Notes: a model not told the origin generated them from the letters alone. Counted from the first letter of the stretch, positions 4,821 through 57,608 are shown. The stretch is DNA of 64,000 nucleotides from Microcoleus sp. (GCF_049646505.1 NZ_JBARVX010000073.1:7510-71509); one strand, 5' to 3'. Made by a program: numbers and translations.

Positions 4821-6233
4821 ATGGGTTATATTTTTGTTTCAGCGGGACACGGCGGGTTTGAAGGCAGCTTGCGGGATATGGGGGCGATCGCGCTTGGCAC
4901 AACCGAAGCCCAGGAAATGATCCAAACTCGCGACTTAGTAGTAGCCGAATTGCGGCAGCGAGGCATCAACACTTTCTCCGTGCCCGATACTCTGAGTTTG
5001 GTAGAAACTATCGCTTGGATCAACAACCGCAGCCTCGCCGGAGATGTAGCAGTAGAAATTCACGGCGATGCTTTTTCTAATCCCCAAGTTCGCGGTGCTA
5101 CCGCGTTTTATATTGGCAGCAACCCCAAGCGAAAAGCAGATGCGGAGTTAATTTTAAACGGCTATTTACGCAGGTGCCGAGAAATACCGAATCGCGGCGC
5201 AAAACCAGATACTGAAGCCGGTGTTGGTAGCCTCGCATTTTGTCGGCGCGTGAACATTCCTTCGCTACTGATTGAACTCGGTTTTTTGACCAATCCCGAC
5301 GACTTGCGAATTATTCAAACTCGCCGCCGCGATGTCGCCCTCGGACTCGCTGACGGACTCGAAGCTTGGTTAAAAAATACGGATTTGAAACCCTTGCCAA
5401 CACCGACTCCCGCACCGACTCCCGCACCGACTCCCGCACCCACACCCGCACCCACACCCGCACCAAAACCTTTAGTTTATCCCTTAATTAATATCCAAAT
5501 CAACGGTGTGCCCTACGAAGAAAAAGGCATTTTGGTGAACGGAAATTCCTTTGTCCCTTCCGAAGTTCTAGATTTTCTCAACGTTGAACCAGAGGCAGTC
5601 GATCGCCGAATTACGTACAATGGAGTAGTATTCGTGCGGGCGATCGATTTGCGCGATCGGGATATCTCCGTAGCATGGGATCAGTCTACAACATCAGTAT
5701 TGCTGCGATCGCGCCGCGACATCCTTGCAGGAATTGGCAAAATCATGGGCCGCGGTCAAACTACCGCCCAACAAATGTCAGCATTTCTGACAAAAAACAA
5801 CAGTAAAGCACTGACAAACTTTCCTAATTTACCTCAAATCTACGTGCAAGAATCAGCCGCAGAAGGCGTAAACCACGACGTAGCTTTTTGCCAAATGTGT
5901 TTAGAAACAAACTATCTCAAGTTTGGCATTGCAGTCAAACCAGAACAATTTAACTTTGCCGACATGGGATTCATCAGCCCCACAAATTCCGGCATCTCAT
6001 TTCCCGACGCCCGGACAGGAATTAGAGCACAAATTCAGCACCTAAAAGCTTACGGCAGCACCGAACCCATCGAGCAACCTTTAGTTAAAGAAAACGTGCG
6101 TTTTCGCTTTGTCAAGCGCGGCGTCGCCCCCACCGTCAACGAACTTGTAGGTCGCTGGAATTCTGACCCCTTATACGGACAAAAAATCATCAATATCATC
6201 CGGCTTTTGTACGAAAATGCAGGTTTATTGTAG
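4821..6233 (+). CDS. Bifunctional cell-wall hydrolase: N-acetylmuramoyl-L-alanine amidase (Amidase_3) + (PTPA)n linker + glucosaminidase-like C-terminal domain
   Basis: N-terminus SAGHGG...VEIHGDAF...LIELGFLTNP is Amidase_3-like. Linker is [26 protein letters not shown]-terminus has FCQMCLETNYLKFG...HLKAYGS...RWNSDPLYGQKI, which is glucosaminidase-like. Confidence 0.8.
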   Translation: MGYIFVSAGHGGFEGSLRDMGAIALGTTEAQEMIQTRDLVVAELRQRGINTFSVPDTLSLVETIAWINNRSLAGDVAVEIHGDAFSNPQVRGATAFYIGSNPKRKADAELILNGYLRRCREIPNRGAKPDTEAGVGSLAFCRRVNIPSLLIELGFLTNPDDLRIIQTRRRDVALGLADGLEAWLKNTDLKPLPTPTPAPTPAPTPAPTPAPTPAPKPLVYPLINIQINGVPYEEKGILVNGNSFVPSEVLDFLNVEPEAVDRRITYNGVVFVRAIDLRDRDISVAWDQSTTSVLLRSRRDILAGIGKIMGRGQTTAQQMSAFLTKNNSKALTNFPNLPQIYVQESAAEGVNHDVAFCQMCLETNYLKFGIAVKPEQFNFADMGFISPTNSGISFPDARTGIRAQIQHLKAYGSTEPIEQPLVKENVRFRFVKRGVAPTVNELVGRWNSDPLYGQKIINIIRLLYENAGLL

Positions 6234-13163: not shown

Positions 13164-16100
13164 CTAAATAAACTTAAAGTCAGAGGCAGTAATGACGGTG
13201 CTCAGAGCTCCCGGCACTGTAGGAATAGAATTCAAAACTGCCAAATCGAAAGCTGGGAGACTGTCATCCGCCACATTTGGGTCGAACCCGAGAACGTACT
13301 TGTTAAAAGTATTGTTCAGGTAGACGAAGAAAGCTCCAGCTTTGGTCGAACCGTTTTGATTCTTCAACACTGCATTCACTGCTTGAGCGTTGTCAAATTT
13401 AGATTCAAACAAAATGACTGATTGCTTGCTGATATTGTCGCCGCTGCTGCCGATATTTCTGACGATAAAACTGGTGAAATCGTTAGTAGTTCCAGAGTTG
13501 GTTAAACCGGCGAAATTCGCTGACCTGAACAAGAATCTGTCTGTGCCGGTGCCGTTGGCATTAAAGTCGGCAATAATATCCACACCTTCACTCGGAGTTT
13601 CGTAGTAGAAGAAATCATTGCCGGCATCGCCAGTGAGCAAGTCAGAACCGTTTCCGCCACCCAAAATGTCATTGCCGGCACCGCCGGAAAGCGAGTCGTT
13701 GTCATCGCCGCCCAACACCAAGTCGTTGCCGAAAGCGCCGCTGAGACAGTCGCTGCCACCGCCGCCGTCTACGGTGTCGTCGCCCGCTTCGCCGAACAGG
13801 GAGTCGCTGCCGCCCTCGCCCAAAATGTAGTCGTTGCCCGAACCTCCGAGTGCTGTGTCGCTGCCTTCGTTGCCCAAAATTGTGTCTTCGCTGTCGCCGC
13901 CGGAGATGAAATCGTTATTGATGCCGCCGTCTAGCAAGTTTCTGCCGAGGCTGCCGTCGATGATGTCGTCCCCTGCGCCGCCGTCGATGGTGTCGTCGCC
14001 TAAACCGCCCAATAAGGTGTCGGTGCCGGTGCCTCCAAGTATCGAGTCTTCGCCGGCTTCTCCCAATATCGAGTCGTTGCCCGTTCCGCCGTCGATGGTG
14101 TCGCCGTTGTCGCCGCCCTGGATGATGTCGTTGTCGTTGCCGCCGAACATCAGGTCGTTGCCGATTCCGCCGATTAGGGAGTCGATGCCGTCTTCGCCGT
14201 CGATGGTGTCGTTGCCGAGCCCGCCGTCGAGGGTGTCGTTGCCGATCGAACCTAGCAGCGAGTCGTTGCCTCCCTCACCGAATTCGAGGTCGTCGCCGCC
14301 CCTGCCGTCGATAATGTCGTTGCCGTCGCCTCCAGAGAGGGTATCGTTGCCGGCCCCGCCGATGATGAAGTCGCTGAGGTTGCTGCCTGTAAAGCTGCTG
14401 GCAGGGAGTTGGGTGCGATCGACAATGCTGTCAACCACCGTAATGCTGAAGGATGCAGGCCCGATCGTTGCAGATCCGTCGGAAGCTGTAAACGTGAAAC
14501 TGTCGCTGCTGCCTGCCGCCAGCAAGTTGTATTTGACAATGTTGTTGTTGATATCGTCTTGGCTGAATTGGCCGCCGACGTTGAGAAAGGTGGTTCCCCT
14601 TTGGACAAAACCTCTGGTGGCGTCGGGGGCTTTGGTAATTGTGTAAACGATTTCCGACGGCGGGTTGTCGGGATCTGTTACTAACAAATCTGCGGAGGTG
14701 ATTGTCTGGGTGGGAGCACTTTTGGCAACCACCACACCGCCGTTAACTTCTAGCTGCGGCGGGCTGCTGACGTTGATGGTTACTACCGCCTGACTCGTGC
14801 CGCCGCTGCTGTCTGCGATCGAGTAACTGAAGCTGTCAGTACCTGAGAAGCCTGGATTTGGGGTGTATTTGAATAGGCCGCCACCAAAGGGAGTCAGGTT
14901 TCCTTTGGCTGTTGGGGTAAAAGTCGTGACAGTCAAAGAGTCATTCTCCGGATCGGTGTCGTTGAACAGAACGTTGAGACTGAGTTCTTGACCCGAAACC
15001 GTGGTGAAGTTGTCGTTAACTGCTCTGGGCGCCTGATTTGGGAAGGGCAGAGGATTTGGTGTCGGACTCGGTGTCGGTGTCGGTGTCGGACTTGCTGTCG
15101 GCGTCGGGAACATCGGCGTCGGACTCGCTGTCGGCGTCGGGAACATCGGTGTCGGACTCGGTGTCGGCGTCGGACTGTCTGTCGGTGTCGGCGTCGGACT
15201 GTCTGTCGGCGTCGGTGTCGGACTTGCTGTCGGTGTCGGCGTCGGCGTCGGCGTCGGAGAAGGACTCGGCGTGGGTAGGGGCAGCGGGGTGGCGCTGCCG
15301 GGAACTGTAGGGGCAATTACAAAGGAACTGCGTCCCAGGGTTCTGCTGTCAACTCCCGGCAATACTGCTAAAAAGTCGCCGCTGACTCCGTTGCGAATAA
15401 TTGCGCTGCCGGCTTTGCTGTCGGTGCTTTGGAAGATTACCAAATCTTCAAATTTGAGGTCGCCGCTGAGTCCGATCGAATCTTCGCCTTGGCGAAAGTC
15501 TGTGAAAATGTCGGCATCGGCGATATCCGGGCCGCCTGTGGTCACAAATGCCGGGTTAGTGCCGTCGCTGCTGCTGCCGCTGGGGGAACTGAAGCCACCG
15601 ATGACAAAGACATCTCTGCCTTCGCCTCCTGCCACGATGTCTTTGCCTTCGTCGCCCCACAGCACGTCGTTGCCAGCGCCGCCGTCGATGATGTCGTCTC
15701 CTGCACCGCCGAACACGATGTCGTCGCCGTCGCCTGCAAATATTGTGTCCGCACCCGCGTCTCCGTAGAGCCAGTCGCCTCCTTCGTTGCCAAACAGCAA
15801 GTCTTCGCCGTCGCCGCCGAAGAGCGAGTCGTTACCTTCGTCGCCCCACACGATGTCGTCGCCTCGATCGCCCGAAAAGCTATCGTCGCCAGAGCCCCCG
15901 CGCAAGCTGTCGCCGCCTTTGCCGCCGTAAGCCGTGTCTCTGCCTTCGCCTCCGATTACCGTGTCGTTGCCGTCGTTGCCGTACAGGAGGTCGGGGTTGT
16001 TTCCCCCGTCGAGGGAGTCGTTGTTTTTGCCTCCGTAGATGGTATCGAGTCCTGAACCGCCGTCGAGTACGTCGTTGCCGGGCCCGCCGAACAGCAAGTC

Positions 16101-16469
16101 GTCATCCTCGTTGCCAAACAGTAAATCGTCGCCCTCGGATGCTTGCACGGTATCGTTGCCTTGCAGCCCGGAAATCACGTCGGGGCCGATGCTGCCAACT
16201 AAGGAGTCGTTGGTGTCTGTGCCCCGGATCACGCCTCCGAGCGTTGATGGTTGGGTACCCGCGCCTCCGCCCAAGGTGTCGTCAAAGCCGCCAAATGTGT
16301 CGTCGGAGGGAGTGGGGGTGGGAGTTGGAGCGGGAGTTGGAGCCGGAGTGGGAGTGGGAGCCGGAGTTGGAGTTGGAGTTGGCGTCGGCTCCGGTGTTGG
16401 TGTTGGCGTTGGCTCCGGTGTCGGCGTCGGCGTCGGCTCAATTATTACAATTGGTACTGCACTGGGCAT
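13164..16469 (-). CDS. Large acidic RTX / cadherin-like secreted or surface protein (paralogue of 10165..13125)
   Basis: Same N-terminus as its neighbour ([12 protein letters not shown], then a PT-run), two long GGxGxD blocks and cadherin-like modules (AVNDNFTT...[10 protein letters not shown]...[11 protein letters not shown]). The C-terminus ends DFKFI, against DFTFI in the neighbour. AAGGAG Shine-Dalgarno present. Only 38 nt separate the two genes. Confidence 0.85.
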
Positions 16470-40544: not shown

Positions 40545-40745
40545 GGATCGAAAACTTAATAACTTAAACACTTCTTACATTCCTTTCTCTTGTAAGTTGC
40601 TTTCCTCAAAGGAGGCAGAGCCTCGCCTATCTGCATTACCAGGCTCTTCCTGGTAACGAGCAGCGAGCAGTAGCGCACTCCGACTAAAGAAAAAAGGAGG
40701 CAGAGCCTCCGGATCTGCATTACCAGGCAGAGCCTGGTAACGAGC
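40545..40745. mobile_element. MITE-like composite repeat, family A (with duplicated core module)
   Basis: The ggatcgaaaacttaataacttaaacac... module is followed by two copies of the ggaggcagagcctc..ctgcattaccagg...cctggtaacgag core. Confidence 0.85.
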
Positions 40746-45564: not shown

Positions 45565-45892
45565 TCAGTAGTCATTAGTCATTGGTAATTAATGTATGGC
45601 TTACAGCGACTTCAGTTTCTACTTGTTATATCGTTTTCGGTTGCATCGGAATGATTTAACCACAGAGAACACAGAGAACACAGAGAGAAATGAATACAGG
45701 ACGATGAAGAGAGGAATTGATATTACCAGGCTCTGCCTGGTAACGAGTAGAACGAGTAAATCACTTAGGATTTCTATATCAGCCAAAATATTAAACAACC
45801 TGCCATTGATACTGTTGCACATTTTTGGAAAAATAATCTAACTCAGGCGACAAATAAACCCGCCCCTTTGATTGAGATAAAATTTAGATAAA

Positions 45893-45914
45893 TTTGACAG
45901 GCTGTCTTTTGACA
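45893..45914 (+). promoter_or_regulatory. Operator/promoter motif TTTGACAggctGTCTTTTGACA upstream of the DsbD_2-ferric reductase operon
   Basis: The second TTGACA sits 18 nt before TATTAT, a good -35/-10 pair. The dyad GTCT-TT-TGAC overlaps the -35. A near-identical motif lies at 53019-53040, in the same orientation relative to mbnP. It is 92 nt 5' of ATG 46006. Confidence 0.55.
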
Positions 45915-46005
45915 AAATCGAGAGGCTGCATTTATTATTGTCAGCAGTCATCCATCAATCAGCAGTTAAAAAACTAATGACGTGAAAGCTAACTACTGAC
46001 TCAAA

Positions 46006-47211
46006 ATGCTAGACCTCCTGCTAATTAGCACTGTCGGATTTCTCGGCAGTTTCGGACACTGCGCGGGAATGTGCGGCCCGCTGACAGTGGCGTTTTCCCT
46101 GTCGGCGACTGGCAAACAAAAAGCTGCTTCCCTGCGCTTTCACCTGCTATTAAATGCGGGAAGAATTGCGGCCTACGCCTTAGTTGGTGCTGCAATTGGC
46201 GGACTGGGTTCGGTATTAATTGCTGGCGGACAAATGGCTGGGACTGGTAGCGGATGGCGGCGGGCGATCGCACTTCTAACAGGTACAATGCTGATTTGGT
46301 TCGGCACAGTCCAAATTAAACCAGATTTGCTGCCCAGATTGCCGCTGTTGCACCCAATTTCGCACGATCGAGTCGGACAAGCAATGAACAAGCTTTCGGC
46401 GCAAAAAAAATGGTGGGTGCCCGTCGCTTTGGGCTTGCTTTGGGGTTTAATTCCCTGCGGTTTCCTCTACGCCGCCCAAATTAAAGCAGCAGAAACCGGA
46501 AATGCGGTTTTGGGCGCGGCAACCATGCTGGCTTTCGGATTGGGAACACTCCCAACCATGCTGGGAGTAGGTTTTTTCGCCGGCAGGTTGAGCGCTGACA
46601 CGCGCAGTCAACTGTTTCGGATGGGCGGCTGGGTGACGGTGGCGATCGGGATTATTACCCTGCTGCGAACCGACGAAATGGTCGATTTGACCGGCCACGC
46701 AGCCCTGCTGTGCTTGATGCTAGCACTGTTGGCGCGTCCCGTTAGCAAGTTTTTGCCGGCACTGCTGCGCTACCGCCGCGCTGTGGGTGTCGGCGCGTTT
46801 ATCCTAGCAGTCGCCCACACGTTTTATATGCTGGATCATACGCTGAAGTGGAATTTTGATGCCGTGTCTTTCATGTTGCCGCAGCATCAGTGGGGAATCC
46901 TAGCTGGGATGCTGTCGCTGCTGTTGATGGTACCTGCAGCGGTAACAAGTGTCGATCGCCTTCAACATTATTTAGGCAAACTCTGGCGAATGCTTCACCT
47001 GTTAACCGTCCCCGCTTTTTTGCTGTCCGCTGTACACGCAGCCCTCATCGGTTCCCACTATTTCGGCGGCTTTGAATCGAAGTTGCACCATCAACTGCTG
47101 ACCGCCGTTTTAGCCGTAGTTGCAGTATTAGTTTTGTGCGTGCGATCGCGCTTATTTTGGTCAATTTTATCACTGGAGAATTTTTATGTTGCGCCTGTCA
47201 AACCAAAATAA
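46006..47211 (+). CDS. Fusion membrane protein: DsbD_2/TauE-like domain (HCxxMCGP) + ferric-reductase-like (MsrQ/YedZ-type, di-His heme b) transmembrane domain
   Basis: N-terminus LGSFGHCAGMCGPLTVAF. C-terminal half has FILAVAHTFYML and LHLLTVPAFLLSAVHAALIG, which are conserved His-bearing helices. About 12 TM segments in total. Confidence 0.7.
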   Translation: MLDLLLISTVGFLGSFGHCAGMCGPLTVAFSLSATGKQKAASLRFHLLLNAGRIAAYALVGAAIGGLGSVLIAGGQMAGTGSGWRRAIALLTGTMLIWFGTVQIKPDLLPRLPLLHPISHDRVGQAMNKLSAQKKWWVPVALGLLWGLIPCGFLYAAQIKAAETGNAVLGAATMLAFGLGTLPTMLGVGFFAGRLSADTRSQLFRMGGWVTVAIGIITLLRTDEMVDLTGHAALLCLMLALLARPVSKFLPALLRYRRAVGVGAFILAVAHTFYMLDHTLKWNFDAVSFMLPQHQWGILAGMLSLLLMVPAAVTSVDRLQHYLGKLWRMLHLLTVPAFLLSAVHAALIGSHYFGGFESKLHHQLLTAVLAVVAVLVLCVRSRLFWSILSLENFYVAPVKPK

Positions 47212-47659
47212 AATTTTGGGAATATTAGTTTTTTTAGGATTGCTCATTGAAGCAGCAATTCCCACAGCACCACACTTCAATTCAACTTCTGTTCTGGCCC
47301 ACGAAGTCGAAGTTTCCGGCGATGTAGCCGCTACCTTTCACCTAGAACCCAACCACAACCCCCGCGCCGGAGAAACCGCCAGAGTTTGGTTTGCCCTGAC
47401 TCGCAGGGGCGGTCAAATAATCCCACTAGAGCAGTGTAACTGCAAATTAGCGGTATATCCGAAACAACACAAACAGGGGGATAAGCCCCTGATGCAGCCG
47501 CCTCTTAAAGCCATATCTGCCGAGAAATACAGAGGCATTCCGGGAGCCGATATCGTATTTCCCAAAGCTGGCATTTACGAACTTCAATTGAGCGGAACAG
47601 CAAAAACCGCAGCTAATTTTAAACCCTTCAAACTGAGTTATACAGTCACAGTTCGCTAA
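47186..47659 (+). CDS. Small exported protein, possible metal (Cu)-binding beta-sandwich (YcnI/CopC/FixH-like; tentative)
   Basis: Signal-peptide-like N-terminus ending VLA|HEVEV would expose an N-terminal His. HLEPNHNP and CNC motifs present. GGAG Shine-Dalgarno 7 nt upstream. Overlaps the preceding gene by 26 nt. Confidence 0.55.
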   Translation: MLRLSNQNKILGILVFLGLLIEAAIPTAPHFNSTSVLAHEVEVSGDVAATFHLEPNHNPRAGETARVWFALTRRGGQIIPLEQCNCKLAVYPKQHKQGDKPLMQPPLKAISAEKYRGIPGADIVFPKAGIYELQLSGTAKTAANFKPFKLSYTVTVR

Positions 47660-47985
47660 GATCCTCTTTCCATCACCGAACATAAATATTGTAGGGGCGG
47701 GTAAACCTGCCAATAAACGCCTAAAACCCAAAATCTCATAAACCCGCCCCACCCAACCTTCGGTAATATCATATACCATCTTCATCAGAATTATTCGTCT
47801 CTCTCTTCTCTTTCTCTGCGTTCTCTGCGTTCTCTGCGGTTAAATAATTCCGATCAAATCTGTATAAAACCTTAAAAATTGCCAACCCTACAAAATGTCA
47901 CAAATTTTTACATTACATTATAACCAGTGTCAATTCTGGAAATTGTTCAAACTAACCTCTCTTGAACTGACTAAAGGATATAACA

Positions 47986-49428
47986 ATGGATATCTTATCA
48001 AACACCGTCGCGCTGTCGCGGATGCAATTTGCGCTAACGGCAATATTCCATATGCTGTGGCCAGTTCTGACTACCGGAATGGGGATTTATCTGGTAATTG
48101 TTGAAGGAATGTGGCTGAAAACTCGCAATCCCGAATACTACCACCACGCTCGTTTTTGGTCGAAACTCTACGTCCTCAACTTCGGGATTGGAGTAGCTTC
48201 CGGGATTCCGATGGAATTTCAATTCGGCACAAACTGGGCCCCATTTTCGGAAGCTGTTGGTGACTTTTTTGGCAGCATTTTAGGCTTTGAAGCTTCAATG
48301 GCATTTATGCTAGAAGCAGGCTTTTTAGGAATTATGCTATTCGGTTGGGAGCGCGTTCACCCGATCGTCCATTATTTCGCTACAATCATGGTAGCCTTCG
48401 GCGCAAACCTTTCCACAGTCTGGATTTTAGTCGCCAACTCTTGGCTGCAAACTCCAGCGGGCGGAGAAATGGTCAACGGGAAGTTCATTGTCAGCGATTA
48501 CTTTCAAGCAATTCTCAACCCCTTCGCATTAAACAGCATTCTGCATATGTTTTTTGCGACGTTAGAAACTTCACTGTTTGTAATTGGCGGGATTAGCGCT
48601 TGGTACATTCTTAACAAGCGCAACCAAGCCTTTTTTTCCAAATCATTAAAAATTGCCATAGCCACAGCAATCGCCGTTGCACCTTTGCAGATATTCATCG
48701 GACATTTGAGCGCCGAACAAGTTTATCGCTATCAACCCACCAAATTAGCTGCGATTGAAGCTAAGTGGGAAACCTCCCCAGCCGGAGAGTCAGCCGATTG
48801 GACTTTGCTGGCTTTACCTAACGAAAAAGCTCAAAAAAATGACTGGGAAATTAAGATTCCCAATGGCTTAGGATACGTTCTGGAATTCAAAGAAAAACTA
48901 TCCGAACCAGTTCTCGGATTAAAAGAATGGAAGCCCGAAGATAGACCCCGAATGGTGGGTTTAATCTACTATTCTTTCCGCATCATGTCCGGGATTGGAT
49001 TCTTTTTTCTAGGATTGATGCTATTCAGTATAATTCAGTGGATGCGAGGCAAACTTTCGCCCGAAAATATTAGCAATCAAGCTTGGCTGATGCGCGCTTG
49101 GGTATTAGCTGCGCCGCTGGGATATATTGCTGTAGAATCCGGTTGGATAGTGCGCTGTGTCGGCCGACAGCCCTGGGTTTTATACGGGCAAATTCGCACT
49201 GCTGATGGTGTATCGAACATCCCCGCTAGCAATGTTTTAACTTCCCTCATCTGCTTTGCCGTTATCTACAGCTTTTTGTTTGTTTGTGCCTTGTATTTTG
49301 GCAGCAGAATTATCCGCAAAGGGCCGAATTTAAATCTACCTGTGCCGGGATTAGAGAATGAACCCGCCATCGAAACTCAACCCGCAGAACATATTCCCAA
49401 TCAACGTCCAGCAGAAGCACAACAATAG
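47986..49428 (+). CDS. cydA: Cytochrome bd quinol oxidase subunit I
   Basis: MDILSNTVALSRMQFALTAIFHMLWPVLT... plus a Q-loop region. Typical CydA. Confidence 0.93.
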   Translation: MDILSNTVALSRMQFALTAIFHMLWPVLTTGMGIYLVIVEGMWLKTRNPEYYHHARFWSKLYVLNFGIGVASGIPMEFQFGTNWAPFSEAVGDFFGSILGFEASMAFMLEAGFLGIMLFGWERVHPIVHYFATIMVAFGANLSTVWILVANSWLQTPAGGEMVNGKFIVSDYFQAILNPFALNSILHMFFATLETSLFVIGGISAWYILNKRNQAFFSKSLKIAIATAIAVAPLQIFIGHLSAEQVYRYQPTKLAAIEAKWETSPAGESADWTLLALPNEKAQKNDWEIKIPNGLGYVLEFKEKLSEPVLGLKEWKPEDRPRMVGLIYYSFRIMSGIGFFFLGLMLFSIIQWMRGKLSPENISNQAWLMRAWVLAAPLGYIAVESGWIVRCVGRQPWVLYGQIRTADGVSNIPASNVLTSLICFAVIYSFLFVCALYFGSRIIRKGPNLNLPVPGLENEPAIETQPAEHIPNQRPAEAQQ

Positions 49429-49436
49429 GAGATTTT

Positions 49437-50447
49437 ATGCAAGCTTTGGAGCATTTTCTCCCGCAAGTTTGGTTTATAGTCTTGGCTCTATTTCTACTCC
49501 TTTACGTCATGCTAGACGGTTTTGATTTGGGAGTTGGAATTTTGTCTTTGACTGCTGACGATGAGGAACGCAGGGGCATTTTAATGACCAGTCTGGGCAA
49601 CGTTTGGGATGCTAACGAAACTTGGCTGGTTTTAATGGGAGGCGCTTTATTTGGGGCATTTCCCCTCGCTTACGGCACGATTTTGACTGCTTTGTACATA
49701 CCGATTTGCATGATGCTTTTTGGTTTGATATTTCGGGCTGTCGCCTTTGAATTTCGCGAGCATTCTAACCGGAAAAAATTCTGGAATTATGCTTTTGGTG
49801 CCGGCAGTTTCTTAGCTGCTTTAGCTCAAGGATTTGCCCTCGGTGCGGTGCTCGAAGGCATTGCGGTGGATGAGGCCGGGCATTTTGTGGGGACAACTTG
49901 GGATTGGCTGGATTGGCGATCGATCTTGGTGGCTTTGACGCTGGTTCAAGGCTATGTTTTGATCGGTTCCACCTATCTAATTATGAAGACTGACGGAGAA
50001 CTGCAAACAAATCACTATCGCACTGCTAAAATTGCAGCAGTGACGACTTTAATCGGAGCAGTTTTAATTACGATCGCCACTCCGATTTTTTACGAAAGTA
50101 CCAGGGAGAAATTGTTTGAAAAACCGCTAGTTTATGTGTTTGTAGCGATTCCTTTGCTGGGATTGCTGCTGGTGGGAATGCTGCTAAAAAGTTTGGCAAA
50201 AAAAGAAGAAAAAACGCCGTTCGTGTGGACAATATTGATTTTCCTGCTTACTTTCCTGGGCTTGGGATTAATTGTTTTTCCATACATTATTCCGACCAAA
50301 ATTACGATTTACCAAGCTGCGGCTTCCCCCAGCGCGCTGGTATTTATGATTGTGTTCATCGGCTTCCTTATCCCGATCATGATTTTTTACAACATCTACA
50401 ATTACATTGTATTTCGGGGTAAGGTTACTGGCGGCTACGGCGAATAA
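49437..50447 (+). CDS. cydB: Cytochrome bd quinol oxidase subunit II
   Basis: LPQVWFIVLALFLLLYVMLDGFDLGVGIL is the CydB hallmark. It starts 8 nt after cydA. Confidence 0.93.
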   Translation: MQALEHFLPQVWFIVLALFLLLYVMLDGFDLGVGILSLTADDEERRGILMTSLGNVWDANETWLVLMGGALFGAFPLAYGTILTALYIPICMMLFGLIFRAVAFEFREHSNRKKFWNYAFGAGSFLAALAQGFALGAVLEGIAVDEAGHFVGTTWDWLDWRSILVALTLVQGYVLIGSTYLIMKTDGELQTNHYRTAKIAAVTTLIGAVLITIATPIFYESTREKLFEKPLVYVFVAIPLLGLLLVGMLLKSLAKKEEKTPFVWTILIFLLTFLGLGLIVFPYIIPTKITIYQAAASPSALVFMIVFIGFLIPIMIFYNIYNYIVFRGKVTGGYGE

Positions 50448-50485
50448 AATAGGTTGGTAGTGAGGACTGAACTCCTCCTAAAAAT

Positions 50486-51715
50486 TTAAGGAATCAAGTC
50501 TTCACTGCGAACGAATGGGTCGATAAAAGCAGGATTTGTAATAAAAGCTTCATCAGTTAAACTGTGCAAAAAAGCCAACAAATCGCGCTGTTCTTGCACG
50601 TTGAGTTTGAAGCCAGAAACAAAGTTACTTTTGAGCGGATTTTCGCTACCTATTCCCGCAAATTCTCCTTTTTTAATAGTTCTGCCACCCGCTTTGTAGT
50701 GGCCGATAACTTCTGGCAAGGTTTTGATACTTCCGTCGTGCATATAAGGTGCTGTCAAAGCAATATTTCGCAGGGTTGGTGCTTTGAATTTGCCCATGTC
50801 CGAGGGTTCGCTGGTGATTTCGTATACTCCAGTATTTTTGGGCGGATAAGCGCCTTTGCCGTCAAGATTGTACAATCCTGTATTGTGAAAGGCTATTTCT
50901 TTGAAAGCTAGGCGATCGTGCGCGATCGAATCTGAGAAGTTTAGTCCGCCGTGGCAGTGAAAGCATTCTAAACGTTCGCTGTTAAATAATTCTTCGCCCC
51001 GCTTGGCTGAAGCTGAAATCGCACCGGAGTCGCCGTTGTAGCGGTATCTGTCGTAGGGAGAAGTCAGGGAAATTAAAGTGCGTTCAAAAGAGGCGATCGC
51101 CTTTGCTAAATTGCTAATATTAATAGGATTGGGTTCTTGACTAAAAGCTGCTGCAAACATTTTTTGGTATTGAGAATCCGATCGCAATATTAGCAAAAGT
51201 TCCTGTTCTTTCCCTACCATTCCCATTTCTACGGGGTGTTCGCCAAACAAAGGTACTAATAGCTGAGATTCTAGTTTATTTTGTAGCGGATTTGCCCAAG
51301 TTAGCACGGAATTGTAACCAATGTTGGCTAAACTCATAGCATTGCGCGGGTGTTTTTCTCCGGTTGCGCCGACTCCTACTGTTTTGCCATCGGTGAAAGC
51401 TTTCGCTTGAATGTGACAGGAAGCGCAGGAAAATTCTCCTGTGACTGACAGGCGTTTTTCGTAGAAAAGATATCTGCCTAATTCAACTTTTTCTTGGCTG
51501 ATTGGGTTGTCGGCTGGTACAATTGGTTTTGGTATTCCAGCGGGAATGTTCCAATTGTAAGTAGGATCGGGTGGATTTGCTAAACTGGAATTTGTGGAGG
51601 ATAATACTGCACTCAAACTCATTGCTAGGAAGCATGATAAAATGCAGATAATAGTCAGAGTTGATAATTTTTTCCGCTTCATTTGATGTTTTGTAAGTAG
51701 CCGGCGGTTTGACAA
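50486..51715 (-). CDS. mbnH: MbnH-family di-haem cytochrome c peroxidase/MauG-like enzyme
   Basis: Two CxxCH motifs (CASCHIQ, CFHCHGG) and [17 protein letters not shown]. The likely true start is the MKRKKL ATG near 51679, which is followed by a signal peptide. Confidence 0.85.
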
Positions 51716-51743
51716 TTACATAGAGATTGAGGTGTGTCATAAA

Positions 51744-51794
51744 CAGAGGCAGAGCCTCCGGATCTGCATTACCAGGCAGAGCCTGGTAACGAGC
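51744..51794. repeat. Family A core repeat (solo) between mbnP and mbnH
   Basis: gaggcagagcctccggatctgcattaccaggcagagcctggtaacgag. It is followed by a ccgcagag-type repeat and a 14-bp inverted-repeat element (ggcgttgctga...tcagcaacgcc, 51867-51981). Confidence 0.85.
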
Positions 51795-52003
51795 AATTTC
51801 ACATTACCACAAGACCTCTCTTCCCTCTTCTCTCTGCGCCAAGAGCGCCCTCTGCGGTAAAAAAAAGGCGTTGCTGATTCATGGTATGAATCAACTTTGC
51901 GCTTGATGTTACAAAGCTCACCATACTTGGCTTATAGCAATTGGGAAATCTTGAATTCATATTTGTATTCAGCAACGCCGCAATTTCAATGCGCGACAGC
52001 TTA

Positions 52004-52954
52004 TTACTTAACTTGAAAGAAAGTTTGTCCCGCAGCAGGTTTATTTCCAAATGGCAAACCTAAGTTTTTCATAATTCCGGCGCAGTCGCCGTCATTCGGT
52101 TCCGACATACATCCGGGCGGAGTATTGGCTTGATTTGCTGTTAAATTAGTTTGAGAAACTAGGGATTTTAGGTCAGCAATAACTGTATTGTTTGTCGGAT
52201 CGAAATTGCTAAAAATTACTTGGGATGTGTTAGGAATTGCACAAATATTCGGCTTTTGATTGTTGCCTTCAGCTTTGCATCCCGTGCTGCCTAAATGAAT
52301 CATAAAACCCTGCAATCCGCCACCGTGACTGCCGCCGCGATTGCCTGCGCTGTGAGCAATTTGACTGCTTTCTTTGCCAGATTTGCTGCCGGGATTTTGG
52401 TCAGCAATTTGATTTTTTATGTCAATCCTCAGAAATTTGTAGCCGCCGCGCCAGTTCCACCACAGGGATGTGAGATTGAGGGGCGAAGGTGCGAGACTTG
52501 CGTCTTCGTGATTGAGGCTAAAAGGTACGCCGAGGGTGAATTGCAGGCCTTTGTAGTTGCCTTTAGGTATTGTGCCGATTACTCGATCGCGAATTTCGGC
52601 TGTTCCGTTAGCGCAAGCACCGGATTTGTTCTCAAAATCTAGCAAAGCGACGTTTTGATGCTGCCATTTGCCGTCTTGTTTGAGAGTGAGCGGTACTGCT
52701 TTGCCGCTACCGTCAATTAAACCAACTTCGGATATATAAAAGCGGAAATCTGTAGGGGTAACGGTAGCAGCAGAAGTGCCTAAATTGCTGTAGCTTTCGC
52801 CACAGTTAAAGGATTTTTCACCTACCGCTGCGCTAAATTTAATTTCGATTTCTTGAGTTTCTGCGGCTGTGGCTTGATGCCTGTCAATCGCCCAAAAGCT
52901 GCCCAAAATAGCTGTGCCTGCAAAGGTTGAGGCCAAGATTAGTTGTTTTTTCAT
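52004..52954 (-). CDS. mbnP: MbnP-family periplasmic copper-binding protein (the four-Cys partner of the metallo-mystery pair)
   Basis: Signal peptide present. FRFYISEVGLID, GACANGT and LTSLWWNWRGGYKFLRIDI (the Trp-rich motif holding the Trp converted to kynurenine in characterised MbnP), plus paired Cys. Adjacent to mbnH on the same strand. Confidence 0.85.
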   Translation of the reverse strand: MKKQLILASTFAGTAILGSFWAIDRHQATAAETQEIEIKFSAAVGEKSFNCGESYSNLGTSAATVTPTDFRFYISEVGLIDGSGKAVPLTLKQDGKWQHQNVALLDFENKSGACANGTAEIRDRVIGTIPKGNYKGLQFTLGVPFSLNHEDASLAPSPLNLTSLWWNWRGGYKFLRIDIKNQIADQNPGSKSGKESSQIAHSAGNRGGSHGGGLQGFMIHLGSTGCKAEGNNQKPNICAIPNTSQVIFSNFDPTNNTVIADLKSLVSQTNLTANQANTPPGCMSEPNDGDCAGIMKNLGLPFGNKPAAGQTFFQVK

Positions 52955-53018
52955 TTAGGGATACTTAAAATACCAACTCAGGTAATTCCGGCCTGATTTT
53001 TACACTTTTTGCTGCAAC

Positions 53019-53040
53019 TGTCAAATGACGGCTTGTCAAA
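53019..53040 (-). promoter_or_regulatory. Operator/promoter motif TTTGACAagccGTCATTTGACA upstream of mbnP
   Basis: On the minus strand, the second TTGACA lies 16-17 nt before TAAAAA/AAAAAT. The perfect dyad GTCA-TT-TGAC (plus-strand coordinates 53020-53029) overlaps the -35. It is 65 nt 5' of ATG 52954. Confidence 0.55.
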
Positions 53041-53133
53041 CTTGTAAATAGCAAAGTTTATGATTAAGCCTTTCTAAAGAAACGGTCGATAAAAAGCCTT
53101 GATGATGTATTGTCGATCGATAATTAATTACAT

Positions 53134-53255
53134 TAGACCTCTTGCAAAAGTCCTTTTAATCAAATTTTGGGACGGGCTAGAAGCCCATCCCACAAGAAAA
53201 AAGATTTTTATGGGATGGCTTCTAGCCGGTCCTAACTATTTTTGCAAGAAGTCTA
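53134..53255. mobile_element. MITE, family C (TIR TAGACCTCTTGCAAAA; core gggacgggctagaagcccatccc)
   Basis: tagacctcttgcaaaag...ttttgcaagaagtcta terminal inverted repeats with nested hairpins. It sits between the mbnP promoter and the blaI-like gene. Confidence 0.8.
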
Positions 53256-53261
53256 TTATCC

Positions 53262-53289
53262 CTAAAATCTCAAACCTAAAATCTAAAAT
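53262..53289. repeat. STRR heptamers (CTAAAAT) abutting the BlaI-like start codon
   Basis: ctaaaatctcaaacctaaaatctaaaatcct-ATG. The last 17 nt are identical to those preceding rodA. Confidence 0.9.
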
Positions 53290-53292
53290 CCT

Positions 53293-53715
53293 ATGAATCC
53301 TCTGCCGAATTACCGCCCCAAGCAACTTTCTCTCGGCCCTTTGGAGGCTGAGATTTTAAATATAGTTTGGGAGCTAGAAATTGCTACAGTCAAAGACGTG
53401 CACGATCGCATTTTAGCCGATCCCGATCGCGAATTGGCCTACGCTTCAGTCACAACAGTGCTGCGGCGCTTGACGGAGAAGGGTTGGCTGGTTTGTAACA
53501 AAAGCGAAAGGACATTCACTTGGCAACCTTTAGTTTCTGGCGAAGAAGCCCGATCGCTGTTTGCTTGCGATCGCTTGCAGAAGTTCCTAGCAGTTAGCAA
53601 TCCCGATATTGTAGCAGCATTTGCTGACAGCCTCGACCAAGCAACAGTCGAACAATTACAAGAAATTTCCCTTCGCATTCAAGCTGTCCGCCAAGCTAGA
53701 AAGGAGAAAAAATAA
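53293..53715 (+). CDS. BlaI/MecI/CopY-family winged-helix transcriptional repressor (PetR-like)
   Basis: 140 aa. LGPLEAEILNIVWELEIATVKDVHDRI...YASVTTVLRRLTEKGWL is the family signature. The stop overlaps the start of the next gene (TAATG). Confidence 0.85.
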   Translation: MNPLPNYRPKQLSLGPLEAEILNIVWELEIATVKDVHDRILADPDRELAYASVTTVLRRLTEKGWLVCNKSERTFTWQPLVSGEEARSLFACDRLQKFLAVSNPDIVAAFADSLDQATVEQLQEISLRIQAVRQARKEKK

Positions 53716-54554
53716 TGCACTTAATCCTAATTTTATCGGCGTTGATTGCTGCTAGCAGTATGAGAATTAGATGGTCTGTTCATTCAGGAAATTGGGCCCG
53801 CCGCTGGCAGCGATCGCTCTTATTTTTCTTGTTTCCACCGCTGCTGTTGCTCGCGACAGCTATCGCAGTGATTTTTATGGGAACTCAGGGACAAATGGTA
53901 AGATTTTGGGACGGATGGTTTAGCTATTTTCTAGCTGTAACTTTTTTGAGCGTAGCTGCAATTTTGTGCGTCAAGCTAGCGGTAGACGGCCATCTATTTT
54001 TAAAGCAAATTCGCACCTGTCCTCAAAAAAAGATAGCCGGAAAAAATATCAGAATTCTCGACACGCCTGCTCTATTTTCTGCTATAATTGGTTTTTGGAA
54101 AACCGAATTTGCAGTCAGTACGGGATTGTTGAAAACCCTCGACTCAGCTCACCTGCAAGCAGTAATTGCTCACGAACAAGCGCACTACTATTATCGCGAT
54201 ACGTTCTGGTTTTTCTGGCTGGGATGGCTGCGAAAAATTACTTTGTGGCTGCCGAATACACAAGCTTTGTGGGAAGAGTTATTAACGCTGCGGGAATTGC
54301 GGGCTGATGCCAAGGCGGCGGCGGGAGTGGATGGTTTATTGTTAGCAGAAGCTTTGCTGTTAGTGGCGAGTTATCCGCACCGAAATTTTGATGTAGATTG
54401 CGTGGTTGGTGCTGTCGGTTCGCAAAATAGATTGGGAGAGAGGATAGAGGCGCTGTTGGCAGAACCTGAATTAGTTTTAAAGGTAAATAAGTGGTTTTTT
54501 GGTTGGTTGATTTTAACGCTTTTGCCTTTATTGACTGTGCCGTTTCACAGTTGA
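53715..54554 (+). CDS. M56-family (BlaR1-like) membrane zinc metalloprotease without penicillin-binding sensor domain (PetP-like)
   Basis: HEQAH zinc motif (AVIAHEQAHYYYRD) with 4-5 TM helices. Only 279 aa, so there is no extracellular PBP domain. Confidence 0.85.
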   Translation: MHLILILSALIAASSMRIRWSVHSGNWARRWQRSLLFFLFPPLLLLATAIAVIFMGTQGQMVRFWDGWFSYFLAVTFLSVAAILCVKLAVDGHLFLKQIRTCPQKKIAGKNIRILDTPALFSAIIGFWKTEFAVSTGLLKTLDSAHLQAVIAHEQAHYYYRDTFWFFWLGWLRKITLWLPNTQALWEELLTLRELRADAKAAAGVDGLLLAEALLLVASYPHRNFDVDCVVGAVGSQNRLGERIEALLAEPELVLKVNKWFFGWLILTLLPLLTVPFHS

Positions 54555-54639
54555 TTGCAGTGGCGACGATGGAAGAAACAACTGGTTTTTAGGCGCTGAC
54601 GCTCTTGAGCTAATGTCAGTTGCTGCATTGCCTCGGCAC

Positions 54640-54738
54640 AGGATTAGGTGGGCTCTGCCTCGCCTGTGTGTCTTGTCAGGCAGAAATGGAGGCAGAGCCT
54701 CCGGATCTGCGTTACTTTCGCAGAGCCTGGTAACGAGT
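54640..54738. repeat. Family A repeat, degenerate
   Basis: gggctctgcctcgcc...ggaggcagagcctccggatctgcgttactttcgcagagcctggtaacgag. Confidence 0.7.
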
Positions 54739-54762
54739 AATTATGTCTGCAAGACACATTTT

Positions 54763-57042
54763 TCATAGCGGAAGCTCGATCGCAAATTCCGTCCCTTCAC
54801 CCAAAACCGAAGTGCAACTCAAGGCTCCGCCGTGTTTTTCAACAACAATTCGGTAGCTGATGGATAACCCTAAACCGGTGCCTTTACCCATCGGTTTTGT
54901 AGTGAAAAATGGGTCAAACAATTGGAGGCGCACGTCTTCTGTCATGCCGGTTGCATTATCGGCAATCCTGATGCAAATACTATTTTCGTTAAGGGCTTCG
55001 GTGCGAATGCTGATAGTTGGTTTCCAGTCGCCGCCCGTTAGCGCAGCCTTCGGAGAGGAACGCTTTTTTTGGTTGCAAGCATCTTCTAGAGCGTCAATGC
55101 TGTTGCTCAGCAGATTCATAAATACCTGATTTAGCTGACCTGCATAACATTCAATTGAGGGAACTTCGCCGTAATTTTTAATTACTTTTATTTCTGGAAA
55201 TTCTGCTCTGGCTCGCAGTTTGTTATGCAAAATTAGCAGCGTGCTGTCTATACCTTCGTGAATGTTGGTAGACTTCTTTACCGAGTCGTCTAAACGCGAG
55301 AAATTTCGCAAACTCAAAACTATTTCTCGAATTCTATCGGCTCCCATTTTCATCGAAGATAATATTTTTATTAAGTCTTCTCTCAGAAATTCTAAATCGA
55401 TGTTTTCAATGTATTCTTGAACTTCTACCGTTGGCTGAGGATAGTATTTTTGATAGAGTTCCACAAGCTGCAGCAAGTCTTTCATGTATTGGGTGGCGTA
55501 GGAAATATTGCCGTAGATAAAACTGACAGGGTTGTTGATTTCGTGAGCCACTCCCGCTACCATTTGACCGAGACTTGACATTTTTTCGGTATGAATTAGA
55601 TGAGATTGGGTTTCTCGGAGTTCTTTGAGAGCGATTTCTAGCTGTTGGGCTCTGTTGTTGGCGATCGCCTCGGAGAGCCGCAAAGCATCCTCCGCTACTT
55701 TGCGCTCTGTGATGTCAAAAATAGCGCCGTTGAGCGATAAAATTTGACCTGCTGCGTTGAAAATGGCTTGACCTTTTTCTGCAACCCACCGCACGTTTCC
55801 GTCGCTGTGAATCAGGCGATATTCGATCGCGTAAGGTTGTTTTGTCTTAATCGCCCGATCGATAATTTGCTCGCTCGGCTCCGCGTCATCGGGATGAACT
55901 AGACTAGAAAAATCCTGCACCGGTTGAATCATAAAGTTAGCTGCCGGATAGCCGGCAATAGCTTCTATGCCGCTGCTGATAAACGTTACGCTCGATCGCC
56001 CTGCCGCGCTGCAACGATAAACTGCACCGGGAATGTTAGAAACTAAGGATCTAAATTCTTGTTCTCTTTCCCGCAAAGCTGCTTCAATTTGCTTGCGGTC
56101 GCTAATGTCGCGAGCAAAGGCGCACTGATATTCTTTACCGTTAAATTCCAAATGGTCGATCGTAATTTCCACCGGAAAAACTCGACCGTACTTAGTGAGG
56201 TGGTGAACTTCAATATTAACCGAACCGCAGCGTTTTAAGACTTTCCAGTGCAAACTCCAAGCTGTTTCGGGAAAATCTGGATTGATGTCGTGCACAGTCA
56301 TCTCGAGCAATTCTGCCGCCGAATATCCCAAGGAAGAGCAAGCAGCGTCGTTGACGTACAAAAATTTACCGTCGGAACCCATCCAGAATACCGCATCTGC
56401 CGATCGGTCGATCGCCAGTTGAGTCAGTTGCAACTTTTCTTCAACCCGCTGGCGGTCGGCAATTTCTTTTTCTAACTGTTCTTCAAGCGAATTGATAGCT
56501 AAAGCGCGATCGACAATAGTGTCTGCAGTGGCAAGGGCGATCGATTGTTTTGACAATTCTCCTGTCTGAAGATCGGGATTTTCCCCATGTTCTTCTAGTT
56601 GTTTTAACGGCAGTTGTTGCAGATTTTCTGTTGGATTAAAACCAGATTCGGCAAGTGCTTTCGGCATCAGGAAGATCGCCACTGCGGCTGAGAACAAAAA
56701 AATCGCCGCACTTGCAGCTTTGAGAGTTACCGACAGCCAATAAATAGAATGCCAAAGCGCCCAAACTTGCGTCAATTCAGCCGCGCCGCAGGCAAAAAAA
56801 CCAACAGCAAACAGCCGTCCAATCTTGCTGCGATCGCCCTGGCGGGTAAAATAAACCAAAGATAGCGCCACAGAGAAATAAGCCAGTGCCGCCAGCGAGT
56901 CAAAAACAGCGTACAGTCGCAACTCCTGCGGCGCGTCGCAGCCGACTGCGGCAGATACAGGAAGTGTTGAAAAAAAAATTGTTAATTGTTCTTGCATAAA
57001 GTTCAAGAAAAAAGTTATTTGCACCAAGGCAAACCCCATCAA
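54763..57042 (-). CDS. Sensor histidine kinase: ETR1-like (ethylene-binding-domain-like) transmembrane module + coiled coil + 2-3 PAS domains + HisKA/HATPase
   Basis: TM region AYFSVALSLVYF...FFACGAAELTQVW parallels Arabidopsis ETR1 AYFSIPLELIYF...IVLCGATHLINLW (from memory). PAS S-boxes present. H-box AGVAHEINNP. G-box GTGLGLSISY. Confidence 0.85.
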   Translation of the reverse strand: MMGFALVQITFFLNFMQEQLTIFFSTLPVSAAVGCDAPQELRLYAVFDSLAALAYFSVALSLVYFTRQGDRSKIGRLFAVGFFACGAAELTQVWALWHSIYWLSVTLKAASAAIFLFSAAVAIFLMPKALAESGFNPTENLQQLPLKQLEEHGENPDLQTGELSKQSIALATADTIVDRALAINSLEEQLEKEIADRQRVEEKLQLTQLAIDRSADAVFWMGSDGKFLYVNDAACSSLGYSAAELLEMTVHDINPDFPETAWSLHWKVLKRCGSVNIEVHHLTKYGRVFPVEITIDHLEFNGKEYQCAFARDISDRKQIEAALREREQEFRSLVSNIPGAVYRCSAAGRSSVTFISSGIEAIAGYPAANFMIQPVQDFSSLVHPDDAEPSEQIIDRAIKTKQPYAIEYRLIHSDGNVRWVAEKGQAIFNAAGQILSLNGAIFDITERKVAEDALRLSEAIANNRAQQLEIALKELRETQSHLIHTEKMSSLGQMVAGVAHEINNPVSFIYGNISYATQYMKDLLQLVELYQKYYPQPTVEVQEYIENIDLEFLREDLIKILSSMKMGADRIREIVLSLRNFSRLDDSVKKSTNIHEGIDSTLLILHNKLRARAEFPEIKVIKNYGEVPSIECYAGQLNQVFMNLLSNSIDALEDACNQKKRSSPKAALTGGDWKPTISIRTEALNENSICIRIADNATGMTEDVRLQLFDPFFTTKPMGKGTGLGLSISYRIVVEKHGGALSCTSVLGEGTEFAIELPL

Positions 57043-57284
57043 ATATCATTATTTGATTTCGGTGGTTGAAATATTTACATAATTATATACTTTTTTCATT
57101 TTTTAGGAAACAGCTATTTTTTCAGGGAATCTGAAAACTGTGTCGGCCGATCCCCGGCAAGCTTTCCCCAAGTACGAGCGATTGCTTTCCGGTGGCTGGC
57201 AATGCTTACTTGCCGGGAAGTGAGGGAATACATAAATTTGCCTGCTTGTTGTTTCGGGAAAAATTATTTTTTCAATTATGATAA

Positions 57285-57365
57285 TAGACCTCTTGCAAAA
57301 ATAATTAGGACGGGCTCTCCGGCCCGTCCGATCAATTGATGAAAAGGATTTTTGCAAGAGGTCTA
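57285..57365. mobile_element. MITE, family C (minimal copy)
   Basis: tagacctcttgcaaaaa...ggacgggctctccggcccgtcc...tttttgcaagaggtcta, with perfect 17-bp TIRs. Confidence 0.85.
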
Positions 57366-57608
57366 ATAGAGTTTTATTTTACAGTCGCAGACCCATAAAT
57401 TTTATTGTATGTAAGCTCCCAGGTACGCTGCGCCTGACTTTGATTGCTGAGAACTTGCATTCCGATCGAACTAATCTAATTCTTGTAGTTTTAGCGGACA
57501 GAAACTCAATCGGCGATCCAGGGGTTTCGTACCCCTGGAATATTGATGCACTAGCGGACTTTCACAGCAGCGAAAAAATCAATTTACGCGCCAACAATCC
57601 ACAATTAA

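Follow-up and report, generated by a model that had tools for sequence, protein, structure and literature searches.

PetR operators of the petJ type at mbnPH and at a DsbD_2/ferric-reductase fusion gene in Microcoleus sp., and a predicted role of PetR/PetP in copper acquisition

Gene content, operators and regulator of the locus

A 64-kb stretch of DNA from Microcoleus sp. (the window) contains, between positions 45893 and 57042, nine open reading frames (ORFs), among which a BlaI/BlaR1-like gene pair lies near the genes mbnP and mbnH and a gene for a fusion of a DsbD_2 domain with a ferric-reductase domain (Table 1). The pair is a predicted PetR/PetP orthologue, and the promoters of mbnP and of the fusion gene carry putative PetR operators of the petJ type. 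Families were assigned by Pfam and NCBIfam profile searches against the model cut-offs. The nine ORFs and the families assigned to them are confirmed, including the fusion with its overlapping exported protein, cydAB and MbnH/MbnP, which had been named in a first-pass annotation of this DNA. Of the profiles that it had proposed as checks, those for MbnP/MbnH, Penicillinase_R, Ferric_reduct and DsbD_2 give matches, whereas for the protease Peptidase_M56 stays below threshold (23.5 bits, cut-off 31) and Peptidase_M48 passes (29 bits, cut-off 20.3). The 11-kb stretch consists of five or six transcription units from two separately conserved blocks and is not the single copper regulon first proposed. 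In many genomes of Microcoleus, and likewise in Oscillatoria nigro-viridis PCC 7112, these blocks lie apart from each other. The 64-kb window encodes neither plastocyanin nor cytochrome c6.

Table 1. Features of the region, in window coordinates.
Feature	Position	Strand	Remarks
petJ-type PetR operator (predicted) TTTGACaggctgtctTTTGAC	45893-45913	+	ahead of fusion gene
promoter-like site of fusion gene	45909-45938	+	TTGACA-18-TATTAT; -35 is the operator's second TTGACA
DsbD_2/ferric-reductase fusion	46006-47211	+	DsbD_2 1e-47, Ferric_reduct 1.2e-10 (Pfam)
exported 157-aa protein gene	47186-47659	+	no Pfam match; 26-nt overlap with fusion 3' end
cydA	47986-49428	+	cytochrome bd quinol oxidase (with cydB); PF01654, 5.7e-158
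cydB	49437-50447	+	PF02322, 2.1e-96; TIGR00203 153.8 bits (cut-off 117.3)
mbnH	50486-51715	-	TIGR04039 525 bits (cut-off 363)
mbnP	52004-52954	-	TIGR04052 303 bits (cut-off 140)
promoter-like site of mbnP	53024-52996	-	TTGACA-17-AAAAAT, extended TG; -35 is the operator's second TTGACA
petJ-type PetR operator (predicted) TTTGACaagccgtcaTTTGAC	53020-53040	-	ahead of mbnP
petR, BlaI/CopY-family regulator	53293-53715	+	Penicillinase_R PF03965 8.2e-28, 97.5 bits (cut-off 22.6)
petP, membrane M48/M56-type HEXXH protease	53715-54554	+	start overlaps petR stop
histidine kinase	54763-57042	-	ETR1_N 62 bits (cut-off 27), two PAS, HisKA, HATPase

The PetR motif described for Synechocystis, which is supported by gel shifts, has an invariant core GACN5GTC and at petJ takes the form TTTGAC-N9-TTTGAC. 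At petJ the site has its centre at the -35 box and lies at distances of 37 nt to the transcription start and 75 nt to the ATG (Garcia-Canas et al. 2021). PetR activates petJ and slr0601 via this direct-repeat form (Garcia-Canas et al. 2021), whereas the form at the repressed petE differs (GACA-N3-TGTC) and is located between the -35 and -10 boxes. The fusion and mbnP promoters have in common the motif TTTGAC-N5-GTC-N-TTTGAC. Its two copies, TTTGACaggctgtctTTTGAC ending 92 nt ahead of the fusion ATG and TTTGACaagccgtcaTTTGAC 65 nt ahead of the mbnP ATG, are the sole matches in the 64 kb at one mismatch or fewer, with 0.00 expected, and 100 dinucleotide-preserving shuffles of the window yielded 0 matches. 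At both promoters the second half-site reads TTGACA, the -35 consensus, and a -10 box follows 17–18 nt downstream; the operator core is located approximately 38–44 nt from the predicted transcription start and 73–105 nt from the ATG. With a position-weight matrix made from 44 distinct operator sites, the fusion operator scores 36.5 bits and the mbnP operator 38.4 bits; a scan for weaker sites with the same matrix gave no further operator above 8 bits in the window. Judged by sequence and position, the common motif, noticed in the first-pass annotation as operator-like, is the published petJ-type PetR operator with the petJ geometry reproduced. The core GACN5GTC alone is uninformative, with 13 matches in the window against 7.6 expected. 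Most of these core matches come from GACTNNNTGTC, which occurs seven times at 15065-15231 with spacings of 18–33 nt. This is a coding repeat of a large ORF (13164-16469), located where the GC content of the window is highest (0.59).

Synechocystis PetR and PetP (Slr0240/Slr0241) are a BlaI/CopY-type regulator and a BlaR1-like protease, with the stop of the regulator gene overlapping the start of the protease gene (Garcia-Canas et al. 2021). This PetP is devoid of the beta-lactam sensor domain and has two conserved Met residues in the loop that joins membrane helices 2 and 3; in PetR, the Phe of the BlaI-type cleavage site is conserved and the cysteine cluster of CopY is missing. Every one of these features is found in the pair from the window. 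The end of petR and the start of petP meet at 53715; F98 of PetR does not vary among 12 aligned homologues, and the translated C-terminus of PetR is free of CxC motifs. PetP has 279 residues, with the protease motif HEQAH, the loop motif MGTQGQM (M55 and M61) and a hydrophobic helix at its C-terminal end, and lacks a C-terminal sensor domain. Cyanobacterial homologues of PetR are 70–96% identical to the window protein (70–75% in other cyanobacterial orders), and the close ones place the organism in the Microcoleaceae, near Microcoleus and Tychonema.

For comparison, 80 petRP loci of species-representative genomes were collected, and the window proteins were located in them by tblastn. In 79 of the 80 loci petP follows petR, the sole exception (L076) being a contig that stops 256 nt past petR. 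Across 77 loci, PetP has HExxH in every case and MGxxGxM in 74. In ten cases among the 80 loci an operator of the petJ type stands ahead of a cytochrome c6 gene, and this connects the motif with the PetR family. By these sequence features and homologues, the pair at 53293-54554 is the PetR/PetP orthologue, in agreement with the resemblance to PetR/PetP that the first-pass annotation had named for the coupled BlaI-like repressor and sensor-less BlaR1-like protease. The system is like that of Synechocystis in its overlapping genes, its sensor-less M48/M56-type protease with HEXXH and two loop Met residues, and its GACN5GTC core within TTTGAC-N9-TTTGAC on the -35 box, petJ operators being present at orthologous loci as well. 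It differs in its targets: those published are petE, petJ and slr0601-0602 only, whereas the predicted targets here are mbnPH and the unit of the fusion and the 157-amino-acid (157-aa) protein, and elsewhere TonB, ExbB, PepSY and ABC (ATP-binding cassette) uptake genes.

Products of the predicted target genes

MbnP matches a solved copper-binding structure (PDB entry 7L6G) with an E-value of 7.5e-38 and with its WNW sequence aligned to the WxW motif. Downstream, mbnH encodes a protein with two CxxCH motifs. Members of the MbnP family have been shown experimentally to bind copper, and MbnH converts a Trp residue of MbnP to kynurenine. By homology, mbnP is predicted to encode a periplasmic copper-binding protein and mbnH the di-haem MauG-like enzyme that modifies it. 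The combination of a di-haem MauG-like enzyme and a WxW periplasmic protein with strong sequence similarity to the solved structure is shared with the MbnP/MbnH pair of methanotroph methanobactin operons; unlike there, methanobactin biosynthesis genes and the MbnT receptor are not found nearby. Methanobactin operons are controlled by a sigma/anti-sigma system, unlike the PetR control predicted here. The spacer between mbnP and mbnH (51716-52003, 288 bp) is packed with small palindromic repeats and hairpins; the relatives have 26 bp (L013) or overlapping genes (L029). The repeat-filled spacer could affect the coupling of mbnH to mbnP.

The fusion protein combines a DsbD_2 (UreH-like) membrane domain with a YedZ/MsrQ-like haem-b ferric-reductase domain of six helices with conserved His residues, and is labelled sulfite exporter, UreH-like or ferric reductase in source annotations. 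NCBIfam matches of the reductase half are MsrQ and MamZ. Fusions of a YedZ-type domain to transporters were reportedly noted in cyanobacteria in 2004. Homologues of 58–64% identity keep H18, C19, M22 and C23 (HCxxMC), H46, H116 and C151 of the DsbD_2 half and five His residues of the reductase half invariant, and several Met residues of the DsbD_2 half are also kept in distant homologues. Like the YedZ/MsrQ-type membrane reductases and their fusions (von Rozycki et al. 2004, as cited in PMC3591440), the protein has the six-helix domain with conserved His, which forms its C-terminal half. It differs from them in its other half, which is DsbD_2/UreH-like and carries the invariant HCxxMC motif, and in the absence of an MsrP-like molybdoenzyme. 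A search against solved structures by sequence gave no match for the fusion or for the 157-aa protein, and a literature search on PF13386 and YcnL gave nothing usable. The top 120 matches of a homologue search with the fusion are all of Microcoleus type, and its taxonomic breadth was taken from the operator census described below instead. From its conserved residues and its operator, the fusion would be a PetR-activated periplasmic metal reductase/transporter.

The family of the exported 157-aa protein has 814 representatives at 50% clustering and no Pfam model. In an alignment of 36 members, a His residue (H39) directly after an AxA-type signal-peptide site is near-invariant, and H52 and C86 are invariant; the N-terminal His that had been suspected for this protein is thus a family feature. 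Many members carry an additional C-terminal linker and membrane anchor. In the window copy an unusually long stretch separates the hydrophobic core from the VLA|H site, which leaves cleavage at this site plausible, if less certain than in the homologues. For the fold, an alignment-based AlphaFold model replaced a single-sequence model with a predicted local distance difference test score (pLDDT) of 69. The model (pLDDT 87.7, above 95 in the domain) shows an Ig-like beta-sandwich, and its best neighbours in the PDB are Helicobacter pylori CrdA, DUF4426 and the copper-binding FetP/P19/FtrA/HftA proteins. With the periplasmic copper-binding Ig-like proteins CrdA and FetP/P19/FtrA, and with proteins that have N-terminal-His sites, such as CopC and YcnI, the protein has in common that it is an exported beta-sandwich; it has no detectable sequence similarity to them and no Pfam model. 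Its predicted mature N-terminal His, a second invariant His and a Cys suggest a metal site. The fusion and 157-aa genes are flanked by tandem repeats of 9-mers in opposite orientation, CACAGAGAA three times at 45661-45690 and TTCTCTGCG three times at 47804-47840; the TTCTCTGCG array is missing in L014 and L082.

Recurrence of the operator and its target genes

In the 80 petRP loci, mbnP-mbnH is arranged divergently from petRP, with the operator upstream of mbnP, in approximately 20 Microcoleaceae, in Oscillatoriales USR001 (2.5 kb away) and in Halomicronema. The operator is also found ahead of the fusion gene in relatives of the window. The complete gene order of the window is confined to the closest relatives (L002-L005, L013), and L014 is without mbnPH. 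In O. nigro-viridis PCC 7112 and Microcoleaceae UBA9251 the block IMPDH-thioredoxin-LOG-fusion-157-aa gene-cydAB lies away from petRP; the fusion promoter nevertheless keeps the operator with one mismatch, though unlinked from petRP. Independently, an operator-bearing fusion gene adjoins petRP in L056 and, accompanied by the 157-aa gene, in L052 (Thermosynechococcaceae). The pairing of the fusion with the 157-aa gene is conserved.

Metagenome contigs were scanned for AAGTTTGACN5GTCNTTTGAC, which gave at least 120 loci and 132 sites, and the first downstream ORF was taken for each site. Cytochrome c6 (petJ) follows at least 47 sites and the fusion, 58–64% identical to the window fusion and from distant lineages, at least 12; it is the second most frequent target after petJ among the census loci listed. 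TonB-dependent receptors follow at least eight sites, small membrane proteins with a His-rich tail at least seven, and PepSY_TM proteins, ExbB and a His-rich protein of ~150 residues at least six each. The 157-aa family is found at least four times as the first gene, and its gene stands directly after the fusion in at least 11 census loci. mbnP, 49–63% identical to the window protein, follows at least three sites, with mbnH after it in two of the census loci listed. ABC ATPases follow at least two sites, and an ABC permease, a non-ribosomal peptide synthetase and a tetratricopeptide-repeat protein at least one each; the remaining sites have a short, unclear or no ORF. cydA is absent from all census loci listed. 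By these predicted targets, the petJ-type operator marks a gene set dominated by envelope uptake functions. Because the operator precedes TonB receptors, ExbB, PepSY_TM and ABC components elsewhere, PetR seems, as far as operator sequences indicate, to head a copper-starvation acquisition regulon that goes beyond the petE/petJ switch.

Several predicted targets form small groups of their own. The operator stands ahead of the non-ribosomal peptide synthetase gene in L203 (1656-1679) and ahead of ABC transporter ATPase and permease genes in L104, L186 and L147, a hint that some cyanobacteria may regulate a metallophore by copper. Seven operator-led genes (L117, L140, L200-L202, L204, L205) encode glycine-zipper membrane proteins of 104–120 residues with His-rich C-terminal tails (Pfam GLTT repeats), which may be the counterparts of Synechocystis Slr0601. 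An exported His-rich protein of ~150–170 residues recurs as operator target in L061 (at 1512), L109, L114, L123, L141, L143 and L194. It has weak Pfam hints and, in L061, an N-terminal HESGHSHPPEGHSH; in L114 and L194 its gene precedes the fusion gene in the same orientation.

Proposed mechanism, rival readings and neighbouring elements

Taken together, the data are best accounted for by a PetR/PetP switch that in this organism activates mbnPH and the fusion unit for copper acquisition under starvation, a reading to which we assign a probability of roughly 0.75. When copper is scarce, PetP would be inactive and PetR would accumulate, bind both predicted operators, each over a -35 box, and activate the mbnP-mbnH and fusion/157-aa units in the way it does at petJ. 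MbnH would then turn the MbnP Trp into kynurenine, enabling MbnP to bind periplasmic copper. The fusion, with its Cys/Met/His-rich DsbD_2 channel and its haem-b reductase, would together with the N-terminal-His protein reduce periplasmic copper and pass it on. Once copper returns, PetP would degrade PetR and both units would be switched off. The family assignments and the identity, position and conservation of the operators are observed here; activation rather than repression, and copper dependence in this organism, we infer. A wider proposal is offered more tentatively, at somewhat less than even odds: PetR/PetP may be a cyanobacteria-wide master regulator of copper-starvation acquisition, in which a fusion/N-terminal-His uptake path reduces Cu(II) and imports Cu(I) beside MbnPH and TonB-dependent uptake.

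Several points weigh against copper acquisition under PetR control. The case for this organism is built from sequence, and no Synechocystis locus is among the 80 compared, so that the orthology to Slr0240 is argued from shared features. The PetR regulon of Synechocystis comprises four genes only: petE, petJ, slr0601 and slr0602 (Garcia-Canas et al. 2021). The fold matches of the 157-aa protein are weak (E 4e-5 to 1e-3, TM-score ~0.5), and we infer copper as the metal of this protein and of the fusion. In the main rival, which we consider unlikely, PetR wiring would be the same, and the fusion and 157-aa protein, along with the TonB, ExbB and PepSY targets, would serve iron or haem supply, or the maturation of c-type cytochromes, in support of the low-copper changeover to cytochrome c6 and the di-haem MbnH instead of copper import. 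It draws on the MsrQ and MamZ similarity of the Ferric_reduct domain, on the iron-transport partners FetP/P19/FtrA among the fold matches and on the Pfam description of DsbD_2 as a cytochrome c biogenesis membrane region. Moreover, TonB receptors, ExbB and PepSY_TM are classical parts of siderophore uptake and, like ferric-reductase domains, equally typical of iron uptake. However, FetP/P19 proteins bind copper themselves, as does the co-regulated MbnP family, the invariant HCxxMC, Cys and Met set of the membrane domain suits Cu(I), and the sensor responds to copper, not iron. A consensus -35 box under the operator, with a good -10 box, could also mean repression, as most BlaI-family proteins repress from such a position; in that case mbnPH and the fusion would be expressed in the presence of copper and serve its handling or storage, not acquisition. 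This is improbable, because the direct-repeat form and the spacing match the PetR-activated petJ and slr0601 and not the petE motif, and because the co-targets in other genomes are uptake genes.

The reading of the first-pass annotation, in which the repressor/protease pair controls a copper-limitation module, finds its counterpart in the operators at mbnPH and the fusion gene; its extension to cydAB and the kinase does not. That the whole stretch forms one such module is quite unlikely. In its favour, the units are adjacent in the window and in its closest relatives, no terminator-like hairpin was seen between the 157-aa gene and cydA, leaving read-through possible, and cytochrome bd needs no copper. 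In Halomicronema (L029), cydAB adjoins mbnHP-petRP and a petE-type core GACAACTTGTC with one flanking half-site (5042-5058, 17 bits) lies 62–78 nt upstream of cydA. Being of the repressor type, this site, if functional, suggests that cydAB would be repressed when copper is low, contrary to a copper-sparing switch. In the window, the matrix scan found no operator above 8 bits at the cydA promoter and no PetR operator at the kinase promoter. The 130 nt upstream of cydA are conserved as a separate unit within Microcoleaceae, and linkage of cydAB is restricted to this family and the one Halomicronema locus; among the loci compared, cydAB is not found beside the fusion gene outside Microcoleaceae. 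cydAB is a neighbour for which neither PetR control nor the role of a copper-sparing switch is supported.

For the kinase, the ethylene-receptor-like module is borne out by the Pfam match to ETR1_N, whereas membership in the copper module is unsupported. Compared with Arabidopsis ETR1, Cys65 is kept, Pro36 is replaced by Ala and the copper ligand His69 by Glu (CGAAE instead of CGATH). In view of the Glu at the position of His69, canonical Cu(I)/ethylene binding by this domain is doubtful. Only within Microcoleaceae is the kinase gene syntenic, along with an aminopeptidase gene downstream, and it has no response-regulator gene as a direct neighbour.

Returning to copper acquisition under PetR control, the PetR/PetP switch of petE and petJ is known, and the predicted PetR operator at mbnPH and at the fusion gene, across cyanobacteria, appears to be new. 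Neither a commentary from 2021 nor reviews from 2025 (on copper) and 2026 (on regulation) add PetR targets to the electron-carrier switch; near petRP, a genomic-context paper mentions comB and petJ only; and recent reviews of cyanobacterial copper import mention only CtaA and non-specific routes. No paper linking PetR to mbnPH, the fusion or TonB genes was found in the literature searched, from whose coverage subscription journals largely fall outside; to this extent the earlier view that the wiring had not been described still stands. For copper import of cyanobacteria under scarcity, mbnPH, the fusion, TonB receptors, ExbB and PepSY proteins are concrete candidates. If the proposal is true, MbnPH biology extends past methanotrophs and two protein families without assigned function gain a physiological context.

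Some repeats of the window lie within or near the region. A palindromic element resembling a miniature inverted-repeat transposable element (MITE), with the termini TAGACCTCTTGCAAAA and its inverse, has its only two copies in the window at 53132-53260, upstream of petR, and at 57280-57367, upstream of the kinase gene, so that it brackets petRP and the kinase. It was considered as a second operator and rejected, as close relatives lack it at both positions; for the same reason it is read as probably a mobile repeat. A 21-nt palindrome, TTACCAGGC(TCT/AGA)GCCTGGTAA, one of the small repeats that fill the mbnP-mbnH spacer, occurs in eight copies in the window with 0 expected, at positions 193, 251, 32400, 39427, 40636, 40720, 45723 and 51769; seven copies are exact, and there is one mismatch in the copy at 40636. 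It has a companion repeat, GAGGCAGAGCCTCCGGATCTGC, at 51738 and 54681.

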